Origin: a phage
Assembly (NCBI GenBank): GCA_037431425.1
Contig: GCA_037431425.1_4129.3
DNA: 35,820 nt
Strand: one strand, 5' to 3'
Numbering within the stretch: position 1 is the first letter of the stretch; every line of letters begins with the position of its first letter. A program made the position numbers and the translations under genes. Below the pieces are notes generated by a model, which was not told where the DNA came from, searched no databases, and saw only the letters and a list, made by a program, of their open reading frames with translations. This document shows, piece by piece, positions 1-30,155 of this stretch.

Positions 1-1313
1 GTAGCATTAGGTGGTAGTACAGTTGGTGTTAGTTGTTGAGTATCACCGACTGAAGTTAATTTAGCACTTGTTGGAGATACTGATACACTTGCAACAGGAA
101 CTGGAATGTTAACAGTTACCACGCAAACTTTAGAAAATCCACCATCAGATGTGGTTGCTGTAATATTTGCAGTACCGTTTGCAACAGCAGTGATTAAACC
201 AGTTGGACTTACCGTTGCGACACCCTCAGCAGAAGTAGTGTATGAAATATCTTTACGACGAGCGTTATCTGGAATAACAGATGCAGTTAGTTGTTGAGTA
301 GCACCTACAGAAGTTAGGGTTGCTGTCAACGGAGTCATATTAATACCAGTTACTGGGATCGTTACATCAATCACTGATTCAGCAGTTTTAGCACCATCAT
401 CAGTTGTAACAGTAATAGTTGTAGTACCGTTATCAACAGAAGTTACTAGACCAGTATTACTAACTTTTGCTACGTCTGGATATGAAGAAACATATGAAAC
501 TGCTTTATTGGATGCAGTTGCAGGAGCAACGGTTGTTTCTAATTGTTTAGTATCACCTAATGTTGAGAATGTATAAGTACTAGGAGTCATAGTGACACCC
601 GATACTGGCGTTTTCACTGTGATCGTAGAAGTGTCAGTTTTAGCACCATCTTCGGTTGTAGCTGTAATCACCACTGTACCGTTAGCAACACCAGTTACTA
701 GACCAGAAGTAGAGTCTACAGTTGCTATATCAGGTGTTGCTGAAGACCACGTGACGTTTTTATTAGTTGCATCATCAGGAGATATTGTGGCAGTTAATTG
801 TTGAGTACTGCCAACGTTAATTGATGCAGTTTTAGGAGAAACAACAACACCACTAACTGGAGTTGTTACAGTAACAGTACATTTTGAAACAAATGAACCA
901 TCAACTGTAGTTGCAATTACATCAGTACTGCCATCTGCAACACCAGTTACCATACCAGTTGGACTTACAGTTGCGAAGCGTGGTATACTGGATGACCAAA
1001 TAACACTTTTATCACTTGCATCATCGGGTGATACGGTAGCTGTTAGTTGATGAGTTTTACCAACACCAAGAGATAGAGTTGAAGGAGAAACAACAACACC
1101 ACTAACTGGAGTTGTTACAGTAAATGCACAAACATCTGTGAAACCACCATCATGAGTAGTAACTGTTACATTTGCATTACCATTAGCACGGGCAATTGCT
1201 AAACCAGTTTGAGCATCAACTTCAACTATTGTTGGAGCAGAGGAACTATAACTTACTGTTGGATCCTGGATTAATTGTAGCTGATAGTTGTTGTGTGCTA
1301 CCAACTTTAAGTG
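1..1313 (-). CDS. Partial ORF encoding at least five tandem bacterial Ig-like (Big_2-type) domains; C-terminal part of a probable virion decoration/fibre-like protein; runs off the window
   Basis: Manual reverse-strand translation in the +1 frame relative to ORF 1246..1716 is open from about 1313 to the window edge and gives repeated ~80-aa units (e.g. ...TPVSGVVVSPSTLSLGVGKTHQLTATVSPDDASDKSVIWSS...). No in-frame ATG near its 5' end. Confidence 0.6.
60..1245. repeat. Tandem ~240-bp DNA repeats (the Ig-like domain coding units)
   Basis: Near-identical segments recur with ~243-bp period, e.g. gaaacaacaacaccactaactggagttgttacagta at 840-875 and 1081-1116; related units at ~330 and ~575. Confidence 0.6.
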
Positions 1314-1716
1314 CTACTACTTTGGGTGAAATAATAACACCATTAACTGGTGTAGTATAATCACGTTTAACCACACGACCATTGTTCAATTTAATAATAC
1401 GACCCATATAAAGAGTAGCATATCCCTTACTAATCCCATCATCTACATAAATCATAAATGAATTGTCTTGAACCATATTAATTGCGTCTACTGGCTTAAC
1501 AGTATTTGGAATGTCGATACCACGGGTATCATACCAACACATGGAAACTTTGTAATATATATCACCATTATCATTGATGAGATCATACACGTTACTGGAA
1601 CGTTGACGGTTAATATATAAAGTTTCGGTTAATACCTTACCATCGATTTTAGCGACAGAAACTTTAATACCACCAATACCAAATGGCAATTTACCTTCAC
1701 TAGATATTGCTTTCAT
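1246..1716 (-). CDS. N-terminal domain (156 aa) of the Ig-like repeat protein; probable late/virion protein
   Basis: ORF with ATG at 1716 (reverse strand), SD-like AAGGAAAG just upstream, stop TAG at 1246-1248; a late-promoter box lies ~38 nt upstream. Confidence 0.6.
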   Translation of the reverse strand: MKAISSEGKLPFGIGGIKVSVAKIDGKVLTETLYINRQRSSNVYDLINDNGDIYYKVSMCWYDTRGIDIPNTVKPVDAINMVQDNSFMIYVDDGISKGYATLYMGRIIKLNNGRVVKRDYTTPVNGVIISPKVVALKVGSTQQLSATINPGSNSKL

Positions 1717-1753
1717 ATACTTTCCTTTATAAAATTGTATTGTATTGTTATAT

Positions 1754-1761
1754 TATTTATA
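1754..1761 (-). promoter_or_regulatory. T4-type late promoter box TATAAATA (reverse strand) upstream of the Ig-like gene
   Basis: Plus strand reads tatttata at 1754-1761, i.e. TATAAATA on the minus strand, ~38 nt before the ATG at 1716. Confidence 0.4.
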
Positions 1762-7276: not shown

Positions 7277-7480
7277 ATGGCTAAACAACCTAAGAAAAAA
7301 GAACCAGTAGCTAAAGTTAAAAAAGCAAAAGTTATTACATCCACAGAACAACGTATGTACGAACAACGTATGTACGAACAACGTAAGAGTGAAACACTTT
7401 CTGGTCTACAAGCTCTTCGCAAACAAGGAGTTCTAACTCGTGCACAATATCGTAAGTTGGTAACACAAAAAGGTTATTGA
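7277..7480 (+). CDS. Small lysine-rich basic protein
   Basis: 67-aa ORF with strong SD (AGAAGGAGA); contains a tandem EQRMY-EQRMY repeat. Confidence 0.6.
   Translation: MAKQPKKKEPVAKVKKAKVITSTEQRMYEQRMYEQRKSETLSGLQALRKQGVLTRAQYRKLVTQKGY
7344..7373. repeat. Exact 15-bp tandem duplication inside the CDS
   Basis: gaacaacgtatgtac x2. Confidence 0.8.
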
Positions 7481-8290: not shown

Positions 8291-8620
8291 ATGAGCAAAA
8301 TTAATGTTGATGTAGATATTGGTTATATTGAAATTGAACCGTGTAGTATTGATACAATGATTGACACTCTTAGTAAGTACCGTGCAGAGTACAGGGGGCA
8401 TATTAGTATTTCACCAGACGGTGGTTACGGTGGATTCCATGGATACAATGTGATTTGGTCCAGAGAAGAAACAGACGAAGAATATAATACACGAATTGAA
8501 GCTGAATCTAAAAGACGTGAAGAAATTGAACGTCAAGAAATGAAACACTTAATGAACAAGAAATCATTAAGTACCGAAGAGAAATATAAACTGCTAAAAT
8601 ACATCAAGGATTACATGTAA
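8291..8620 (+). CDS. Hypothetical protein
   Basis: ORF in the operon frame; weak SD. Confidence 0.5.
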   Translation: MSKINVDVDIGYIEIEPCSIDTMIDTLSKYRAEYRGHISISPDGGYGGFHGYNVIWSREETDEEYNTRIEAESKRREEIERQEMKHLMNKKSLSTEEKYKLLKYIKDYM

Positions 8621-9270
8621 TGAAAAATGTAACACAAGAAAAGATTCTATACCTTGCAAAATATAATGGTGGTTTCAATATCATTAGCCGTGAGTACCAT
8701 GGTAATTTGGCTAAGTTGATTGACAGTTTGTTAGAATTTGATTTCATTAAATGGGAAACTAATGAACTTTGGTACGAATATGCTGGTCAGCAATGGGAAA
8801 GTGACTACGATCATGCAATTCATACGTATACAATCACTAAAAGTGGTGAAGTATGTTTAGCTATCATGCGTTGTGCATATACTTACAAACATCACAAAGG
8901 TGAAGAAAAGCATATTCGCAGAAACGAAGAATTACTTCACCTAATGGGTGAAGCTGGTATTACAATGCATGACTTGTTCAATGAACCAAGATGGACTAGA
9001 ACTCTTACTAAAGCTGAATATAAATCATTACGATACATTGATGAACAAAGCAACACCCCAGATGAAATTGATGATGTTAGTGATGATGAACTAAGCCTCA
9101 AAAATGTATTTGAAAGTACCAGCACTGAAAGTATTACTGATATTTCAGTACAGATGGCACTAAAAGCAATGGAACTTTTCAAGACACAATATGAAGGGCA
9201 CAGTGCTGAAGAAGTAGAGCGTGAGTTCATTACACGTGTACAGATTGCATTGTTCCAATCGAAAAAGTAA
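8620..9270 (+). CDS. Hypothetical protein
   Basis: TAATG stop-start coupling with the upstream ORF. Confidence 0.55.
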   Translation: MKNVTQEKILYLAKYNGGFNIISREYHGNLAKLIDSLLEFDFIKWETNELWYEYAGQQWESDYDHAIHTYTITKSGEVCLAIMRCAYTYKHHKGEEKHIRRNEELLHLMGEAGITMHDLFNEPRWTRTLTKAEYKSLRYIDEQSNTPDEIDDVSDDELSLKNVFESTSTESITDISVQMALKAMELFKTQYEGHSAEEVEREFITRVQIALFQSKK

Positions 9271-9367
9271 ATTTTTACTTGTACTAATCGCAGTTCTTAT
9301 GGTATTATCTTGTTCAGTTAGTAATGGTAAACCATCAATTGAGTACTTATGTATAGGTGATTAAATT

Positions 9368-10767: not shown

Positions 10768-11132
10768 ATAGTAAATTGGAGAAATTAATCGAAGAATTAC
10801 GCCAGATGCCGCCGATTGAACAAGTAGGTAATTATAAACGGTATCGTATTATTGCTCGTGCACTTGATAAAAAAGGTAGAGTACTGGCAACTCGCACAAA
10901 TTCTTATACACAGACTCACCCTAAGCAGAAAAACTTTGCAGTTAAAGCTGGAAGAAATGATGCAATATGGTTACATGCTGAAATAAGCTGTTTACTCGCA
11001 GCAAGGGCTGATGTTCACACATTATTAATTGCACGGGTTAGTAAAGATGGAATTCCCGTTTCTGCAAAACCATGTGAAATTTGCTCTTTAGCAATACAAG
11101 AATACGGAGTAGTTGAAGTAATACATACATAG
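10764..11132 (+). CDS. CDA-fold zinc-dependent deaminase-like protein
   Basis: HAE (LHAEISCLL) and PCxxC (KPCEICS) zinc-ligand motifs; ATGA coupling. Confidence 0.55.
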   Translation: MNSKLEKLIEELRQMPPIEQVGNYKRYRIIARALDKKGRVLATRTNSYTQTHPKQKNFAVKAGRNDAIWLHAEISCLLAARADVHTLLIARVSKDGIPVSAKPCEICSLAIQEYGVVEVIHT

Positions 11133-11145
11133 GTAGAATATTTTC

Positions 11146-12222
11146 ATGGAAGAAATAAAAAAAGAATTAAATCAATTTAATGAATACGTATATAATTTGT
11201 ATTTTAATAAAAATATTATTTTTACTTGGATGAAACCTGAAGATATAAAGTATATAAAAACATCATCATCAAGTAAATCTCCATTTTACTTTGAAAAATT
11301 AATACTCAATAAATCATTTTCAAATTATCATTTTGAATTTCTTGGTTTTAATATAAAAAAATCAGATGATTGGATAGGAAAGCTTACAAATATAGTAATT
11401 AAGTTGAATGATATAATATATATACGTAACATAAAATCTTTTTTGGAGATGCCTGTGACTCTCAAGCGTGTCCCATATGTGATTCATAATTCTAATAATA
11501 TTAGTTACTATTTAAACAAATACAATAAAAATTTAAAATATATAAATTGTATGTATGATAAAATCAATGAAAAAACTTATTTAGATTTACAATGTAAAAT
11601 ATGTGGTTATGAATATAAATCATGTTTAAACAATATTAAACATAGAAGTACAGATTGTCCTGGTTGTATGAATAATGTTGTATTATCTGAAGATGATATG
11701 TTATATAGAATAACATTGAAATTATATACACAACCACATATAAAATTATTAAATTTCAACTATAATAACGGTGGTAATAAGAATGCAATAGGTACATATT
11801 ATTGTGAAATACACAATTATACATGGGATTCTATGTATTTTGGGACAATTGCAAAAGATCAAAGTTGTAAACTTTGTATGCAAGGTCAATCTAAAGGTGA
11901 AAAATATATCACTGAAATATTGGATAATTTAAAGGTAAATTATATAAGAGAATATAAATTTGATAAATGTTTTAATCAAAGAAAATTACCTTTTGATTTT
12001 TATATTCCAGATTTCAATTTATGTATAGAATATGATGGAAGACAACACTTTGAATCTGTGGATTTTTATGGTGGAAACGATGCTTTTTTTATAAGAAAAA
12101 AGAATGATGAAATAAAAAATTCATTCTGTGAAAATAATAATATTACATTATTAAGATTTAATGATCTCAATTTTTCTCGTATTGAATCAACATTGAATAG
12201 AATACTAAAAAGTGTTAAATAA
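11146..12222 (+). CDS. Putative free-standing homing-type endonuclease (Cys-pair zinc-finger region + DUF559/Vsr-like nuclease C-terminus)
   Basis: Much more AT-rich than neighbours; several CxxC pairs; C-terminal ...FDFYIPDFNLCIEYDGRQHFE...ITLLRF resembling the DUF559 restriction-endonuclease-like signature. Confidence 0.5.
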   Translation: MEEIKKELNQFNEYVYNLYFNKNIIFTWMKPEDIKYIKTSSSSKSPFYFEKLILNKSFSNYHFEFLGFNIKKSDDWIGKLTNIVIKLNDIIYIRNIKSFLEMPVTLKRVPYVIHNSNNISYYLNKYNKNLKYINCMYDKINEKTYLDLQCKICGYEYKSCLNNIKHRSTDCPGCMNNVVLSEDDMLYRITLKLYTQPHIKLLNFNYNNGGNKNAIGTYYCEIHNYTWDSMYFGTIAKDQSCKLCMQGQSKGEKYITEILDNLKVNYIREYKFDKCFNQRKLPFDFYIPDFNLCIEYDGRQHFESVDFYGGNDAFFIRKKNDEIKNSFCENNNITLLRFNDLNFSRIESTLNRILKSVK

Positions 12223-12444
12223 ATGAAAATTGAACGCTACCAAAACCATACAGTTGTGACTGAAGATGATATATTTTATTTTTATATTTTTTCACCTAAT
12301 CACTGTTTGCAAATAACAACATTTAATGATGGTAAATTTAAAGATATCAATTTTCCAGTATCAGAATTAGCTAAATATTCCAGTACTGAACACTTTAGTA
12401 ATCTAGTATTTGTGTACTGTATTCCAAACTCAAATAATAAGTAG
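12223..12444 (+). CDS. Hypothetical small protein (in the AT-rich insert)
   Basis: 73-aa ORF directly abutting the endonuclease gene; same extreme AT-richness. Confidence 0.35.
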   Translation: MKIERYQNHTVVTEDDIFYFYIFSPNHCLQITTFNDGKFKDINFPVSELAKYSSTEHFSNLVFVYCIPNSNNK

Positions 12445-16920: not shown

Positions 16921-16928
16921 TATAAATA
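16921..16928 (+). promoter_or_regulatory. T4-type late promoter box TATAAATA
   Basis: Exact TATAAATA 32 nt upstream of the ATG at 16960. Confidence 0.55.
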
Positions 16929-30147: not shown

Positions 30148-30155
30148 TATAAATA
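30148..30155 (+). promoter_or_regulatory. T4-type late promoter box TATAAATA
   Basis: Exact TATAAATA 18 nt upstream of ATG 30174, with AAGGAGAG SD between. Confidence 0.5.

Follow-up and report, generated by a model that had tools for sequence, protein, structure and literature searches.

The window examined here, a 35,820-nucleotide stretch of phage DNA, opens on its minus strand with a late gene for an Ig-repeat virion protein of an Asteriusvirus; in our view this gene has very probably been truncated by a genuine 11-nt deletion, leaving a 156-aa product and, downstream of it, an Ig-like array that is now an untranslated remnant. We read the break as a commonplace mutation that has inactivated the gene for an apparently dispensable decoration, and not as a site of programmed ribosomal frameshifting. 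Coordinates for the features described below are collected in Table 1.

Table 1. Features of the Ig-repeat gene and its upstream region (window coordinates)
Feature	Position	Strand	Details
T4-type late-promoter-like motif, TATAAATA box	1754..1761	-	37 nt 5' of ATG
Shine-Dalgarno sequence, AAGGA	1723..1727	-	6 nt 5' of ATG; read from sequence
Truncated reading frame, 156 aa	1246..1716	-	ATG 1716, TAG 1248-1246
Conserved N-terminal domain (about aa 1-122), presumed virion-attachment module	1351..1716	-	PHROG 33171 match
First third of Big_2 domain 1, frame 0 (aa 124-154)	1255..1347	-	Pfam profile positions 2-32 of 79
Overlap zone, frame 0 and frame +1 both open	1246..1313	-	68 nt
Deletion junction	1265..1266	-	11 nt ATTATGCAAAT (gene orientation) missing between G1266 and G1265; creates CCAGGATCC
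Out-of-frame gene remainder	1..1265	-	remaining part of Big_2 domain 1, four whole Big_2 domains and the beginning of a sixth; cut by contig end

Two overlapping reading frames from a single gene

Working from the 5' end of the gene, we see first the short minus-strand frame of 156 codons, for which our coordinates reproduce exactly those given in the first-pass annotation. The frame lying at +1 to it has its final stops (TAG TAG) at 1319-1314 and then remains open from 1313 to base 1, a run of 437 codons containing five Pfam Big_2 stretches—in agreement with the earlier description of a frame open from about 1313 to the edge and encoding at least five such domains. A rescuing +1 shift is possible solely within the zone where both frames are open. 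At the junction the sequence reads AAG UUA UAG U, which includes the UUA UAG U context noted previously. The statement that the +1 frame has no ATG or Shine-Dalgarno sequence of its own also proves essentially right, the sole start-like codon ahead of 953 being a TTG at 1304, itself without a Shine-Dalgarno sequence. Internal re-initiation was therefore rejected as a route to the Ig array; the next start, ATG 953, lies inside domain 3, and a product initiated there would be without the anchor domain.

That the two frames represent one gene, as originally supposed, is borne out by the three closest genomes: the gene runs without interruption as one ORF in phages ph0011 (890 aa), UE-S1 (633 aa) and A4 (722 aa).

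Architecture of the encoded protein

The N-terminal domain matches PHROG 33171, 'virion structural protein', over residues 1-115 (E = 2.9e-16) and is modelled by AF2 with a pLDDT of 88.7; a sequence search with this domain against solved structures returned noise only, in the form of engineered OspA repeats. An exhaustive HMMER search retrieved 56 clusters, in nearly all of which the domain occupies the N-terminus (residues 1 to about 120), with total protein lengths that range from 76 to 2021 aa. This near-universal placement, taken together with the spread in length, defines a family built from an anchor and a variable C-terminal extension; the ~120-aa N-terminal module is presumed to be its conserved virion-binding part. 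Matches to the N-domain were found by tblastn in 57 jumbo-phage records, and the window protein, like other members of the RaK2-like jumbo-phage virion protein family, carries the ~120-aa match at its own N-terminus.

Beyond the N-terminal domain comes the Big_2 array. When compared with the Pfam Big_2 profile (PF02368), the five stretches of the +1 frame score 241 bits (E = 6.4e-73), above the gathering score, supporting the earlier designation of an Ig-like-repeat (Big_2) protein; the ph0011 orthologue gives nine stretches and 442 bits, and the out-of-frame remainder of the window gene is colinear with residues about 155-575 of its 890. Since the 0-frame ORF already holds the first 31 Big_2 profile positions, the break interrupts the first Ig domain and does not coincide with a domain boundary. 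The 0-frame product itself scores 20.8 bits, under the 22.8 cut-off, because only profile positions 2-32 are covered.

Source phage and genomic context

Along its whole length the window is 98-99% identical to phage ph0011 (OP557969) and, judged by its sequence, represents a contig from an Asteriusvirus, one of the RaK2-like jumbo phages of E. coli. NCBI files it under an Escherichia coli isolate assembly, although the DNA is that of a lytic jumbo phage: the 156-aa product is deposited as EMR6007906.1, 'hypothetical protein [Escherichia coli]', on a contig of 35,820 nt, from which it follows that the phage DNA sits in a bacterial isolate assembly. The identical phage sequence is found in two adjacent SRA runs (SRR28398425 and SRR28398423), which suggests phage carriage or contamination among isolates of one project.

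The Ig-repeat gene is flanked by a ClpP-like gene and a dCMP deaminase gene in ph0011, UE-S1, A4, 121Q, phAPEC6 and RaK2, and this conserved genomic position is a second feature shared with the RaK2-like virion protein family. Between the divergently transcribed Ig and ClpP-like genes, at 1897-1930, lies an intergenic tandem repeat of CAATAAACTTAA (2.8 copies), which is 10 nt longer in the window than in ph0011.

Several other differences from ph0011 are apparent on the plus strand. A second 11-nt deletion (GGATGATATGA; window 9260-9275), directly 3' of the stop of a 216-aa ORF (8620..9270), leaves a small ORF, unannotated in ph0011, without its ATG and Shine-Dalgarno sequence; this ORF starts MKFLLVLIAVLMVL, which resembles a signal peptide or transmembrane segment. 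A segment of ~1.1 kb at 11083-12226, missing from ph0011 and located directly after a small deaminase-like gene, encodes a 358-aa ORF (11146..12222) for which a Pfam search gave no match; the segment may be a mobile or accessory insertion. Finally, a small hypothetical gene (~62 aa) carries a 15-nt in-frame insertion at 7371.

A late-promoter-like box upstream of the gene

The first-pass annotation had taken the gene to be a late one on account of an upstream box, and our data are in keeping with this. Five alleles (those of the window, ph0011 and UE-S1, and two further alleles, L009 and L010, described below) share an identical TATAAATA box in identical surroundings, and in RaK2-like phages the motif ATAAATA, which resembles the T4 late promoter, has been reported to precede structural genes (PMC5259590). 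By motif, the box is a candidate T4-type late promoter, for which a TATAAATA box is expected at about -10, ahead of a gene that is structural or expressed late. Counted over the window as a whole such boxes are not enriched (four observed versus 7.3 expected by chance); three of the four lie no more than 40 nt 5' of a same-strand ATG. One of these (16921-16928, plus strand) is found 32 nt before the ATG of an 899-aa ORF (16960) and another (30148-30155, plus strand) 19 nt before that of a 146-aa ORF (30174), the counterpart of which is annotated in ph0011 as a starvation-inducible DNA-binding (Dps-like) protein; the two boxes may be late promoters of genes that are not obviously structural.

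The frame is broken by a lineage-private deletion

An alignment with ph0011, UE-S1, A4, L009 and L010 shows the 11-nt gap to be private to the window lineage: the missing nucleotides are present in both ph0011 and UE-S1, A4 has aligned sequence at this point in the DNA alignment, and the relatives encode ...INP-DYAN-DPTVSY... across the site. Because of the deletion, the remainder of the gene is placed in the +1 frame, and the 0 frame reaches UAG seven codons on. Only a single placement of the gap fits and there is no flanking repeat, so that a microhomology-mediated deletion finds no support; the lack of such an origin for the gap counts against our reading of the break. Searches of viral and metagenome contigs for the exact junction, and for a pattern allowing 0-11 inserted bases, gave 0 hits.

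The N-terminal part of the gene shows 0 differences from ph0011 in 150 codons, and the out-of-frame array differs from ph0011 at 13 synonymous and 4 non-synonymous codons and contains no stops. With the N-terminal part identical and the array still stop-free, the break must be recent; a minority intact allele may be present in the phage population.

It had been suggested that an assembly indel was an equally possible cause of the break, in which case the real phage genome would carry an intact gene and the junction would be an artefact of assembly or sequencing. The contig does end within the repetitive Big_2 array, indicating that the assembler struggled close by, and it comes from an E. coli isolate assembly built from short reads, with phage DNA among its contents. 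The NCBI contig is, however, matched by Logan assemblies of both SRA runs, which contain the exact 156-aa protein and are 100% identical in DNA across the junction; in SRR28398425 the contig that passes through it is 28 kb long. The two runs are neighbouring accessions, perhaps from one phage stock, and so do not represent independent isolates; nevertheless, that a different assembler reproduces the deletion from the reads makes an assembly artefact unlikely. Moreover, the gap is of 11 nt, not 1 nt, and a loss of this size from non-repetitive, non-homopolymer sequence is atypical of Illumina or assembly error. Neither does the assembly appear error-prone, since no other CDS is frame-broken with respect to ph0011 in the 35.8 kb: every 1-nt indel is intergenic (isolated ones lie between annotated ph0011 CDS, and the others group at the borders of a divergent segment), and the remaining larger indels are either in frame (15 nt) or outside annotated genes. 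All told, we regard an artefact as very unlikely, in place of the even chance originally allowed.

Long, short and broken forms in related phages

Across ph0011, UE-S1 and A4 the position of the gene and its upstream region are the same, and the number of Big_2 units varies among these intact alleles. The N-domain of the window protein is 100%, 98% and 88% identical to those of the corresponding long forms (WAE77065.1, UES1_422 and A4_464), as compared with 28-38% for the short forms 121Q gp471, phAPEC6 gp347 and RaK2 gp496; for the syntenic protein as a whole, long and short, the PHROG entries are PHROG 33171 / PHROG 215. The window has locus position and promoter region in common with its syntenic relatives and differs from them in that the frame is broken after residue 150 by the 11-nt deletion, with just the N-domain and a stub remaining in frame.

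Naturally short versions of the protein also exist: the syntenic gene in 121Q, PBECO4 and phAPEC6 encodes 125 aa, corresponding to the N-domain alone, and that of RaK2 encodes 212 aa. The phAPEC6 orthologue, gp347 (14.1 kDa), has been found in purified virions by ESI-MS/MS, with 8 unique peptides and 75.2% coverage (PMC7247149); by orthology, this supports the earlier claim that the window gene encodes a virion protein.

In phage A4 (locus L003, 4098-6698) the long form, A4_464, has directly downstream of it a short 124-aa form, A4_463, annotated as a 'putative structural protein'. Because these genes adjoin, and because tblastn with the N-domain matches three places in the A4 record, the family is possibly duplicated in this phage. 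Searches for related loci using the first 207 aa found no relative in viral contigs and, in metagenome contigs, generic Big_2 matches only, with no relatives of the N-domain.

Two truncated alleles were the only proteins returned by a word-index protein search. In allele L009 (ERR11566739) an extra AT (+2) extends an (AT)4 run near codon 54, and the protein is cut to 76 aa; allele L010 (ERR10686700) has lost 14 nt (-14) later in the first Big_2 domain and encodes 176 aa. The neighbouring genes on both contigs are intact. A fragment allele, P0058, is intact through the junction seen in the window. As L009 and L010 carry different, independent frame-breaking indels, the Ig array appears to be dispensable and repeatedly lost.

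Programmed frameshifting and recurrent loss as alternative readings

The first-pass annotation raised the possibility of a programmed +1 frameshift at UUA UAG U. Such a shift, there or elsewhere in 1313-1246, would fuse the 156-codon frame to the Ig array and give a virion protein in two lengths, in the manner of Listeria phage PSA or SPP1 gp17.1*. The overlap between the frames allows for this, a stop codon in the A-site is a known context for +1 slippage, the array is still without stop codons, and the addition of Ig-like domains by frameshifting is a known theme, reportedly described by Fraser and co-workers in 2006, whose paper is cited in PMC5259590. Saying this, the likeness to the PSA capsid and tail proteins and to SPP1 gp17.1*, where a short frame closed by a stop codon overlaps a +1 frame for Ig-like domains, is superficial: in the window the break is not conserved in relatives, lies inside a domain and was made by a deletion, and it is not accompanied by a slippery motif of the CCC-stop type. 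On inspection, 1313-1246 contains no known +1 slippery heptamer and no motif of either the CCC-stop or CUU-UGA type; the overlap zone does include CUU-AAA, the A-site codon of which is a common one. Nor does UUA make a slippery P-site, re-pairing being poor, with tRNA-Leu on UUA judged unable to re-pair with the +1 codon UAU. A Shine-Dalgarno-like stimulator adjacent to the shift site at the right spacing (about 3 nt) is also lacking, and folding of the 111 nt that begin at the stop gives -18.4 kcal/mol, an unremarkable value when set against shuffled sequences (z = +0.77). Transcriptional slippage was rejected as well, there being no homopolymer run in 1313-1246.

Comparison of the junction in related phages, one of the checks proposed in the first-pass annotation, likewise goes against frameshifting: ph0011, UE-S1 and A4 have a continuous ORF, so that neither the break nor a shift site is conserved, and since the lineage-private deletion lies inside a domain, the first Big_2 domain of any fused product would be damaged. 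Furthermore, the other broken alleles demand other shifts at other sites (+2/-1 in L009, +1 elsewhere in L010). Low-level spontaneous +1 shifting at UUA-UAG may take place; a programmed shift we consider exceedingly improbable. A different possibility sees in the Ig-array gene a mutational or selective hot spot, where selection repeatedly favours loss of the array (when the phage is carried in one host or propagated on it, for example), or else a population-level on/off switch for the decoration. Three of about seven known long-form alleles carry independent, uncompensated frame-breaking indels (-11, +2 and -14) next to genes that are intact on the same contigs, entire lineages (121Q, PBECO4, phAPEC6) are without the array, and unit count is variable among the intact alleles. 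The sample is small, however, and possibly biased, since each truncated product falls into a separate database cluster and it was these that were retrieved; the lesions share no repeat tract and would not readily revert, unlike those of true contingency loci, and relaxed selection on a dispensable decoration fits equally well. Whilst better placed than either an artefact or a programmed shift, a hot spot or switch is, we think, unlikely.

Discussion

We favour the reading in which a genuine 11-nt deletion has inactivated an Ig-repeat virion gene. In our model, a single late gene specifies a conserved N-terminal attachment domain of ~120 aa and, behind it, an array of Big_2 Ig-like domains that varies between phages; the genomic deletion, located in the first of these, shifts the frame and would bring translation to a halt at the nearby UAG, yielding a product that consists of the N-terminal domain and an unfolded stub of about 30 residues, with the downstream array left as a very recent, stop-free remnant that is no longer translated. 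The shortened protein probably continues to enter the virion: most likely, the 156-aa product is made and incorporated, and the Ig array is unexpressed. As this protein corresponds to what 121Q, PBECO4 and phAPEC6 naturally encode, the N-domain alone, the phage would simply lose its Ig 'hair'.

In decorations of the Hoc type, a small domain binds the particle and the Ig array projects outward. By analogy, the N-domain of the window protein would bind the particle with its Ig array also directed outward. From general knowledge of T4 Hoc, the likeness extends to an Ig-like array carried on a separate small binding domain, to late expression and to an array that is apparently dispensable; the anchor domain of T4 Hoc is C-terminal, however, where that of the window protein is N-terminal, and the Ig type of the window protein, Big_2, is also unlike that of Hoc. 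The protein shows no sequence or Pfam relationship to Hoc, and thus does not belong with the T4 Hoc family as defined by sequence homology and binding at the centre of the capsid hexamer.

The main value of this analysis lies in the correction of an apparent recoding site: since that site is a frame-disrupting deletion, the locus belongs off lists of phage programmed frameshifts. What it offers instead is a view of a phage's Ig-like decoration array very soon after its inactivation. It is of mild interest that independent disruptions of one gene recur across assemblies, a pattern consistent with the repeated loss of a dispensable decoration. A stronger version, which we put forward doubtfully, holds that the Ig-array gene is a recurrent target for inactivation in Asteriusviruses and that positive selection favours the shedding of Ig domains in certain circumstances; persistence within cultures of E. 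coli could be one of them, given that this contig is from a bacterial isolate assembly. If true, it would allow the worth of Ig-like domains to phage fitness to be measured in a natural setting. Taken together, the window and the independently broken alleles support the view that Ig arrays are accessory elements, often gained, resized and lost.
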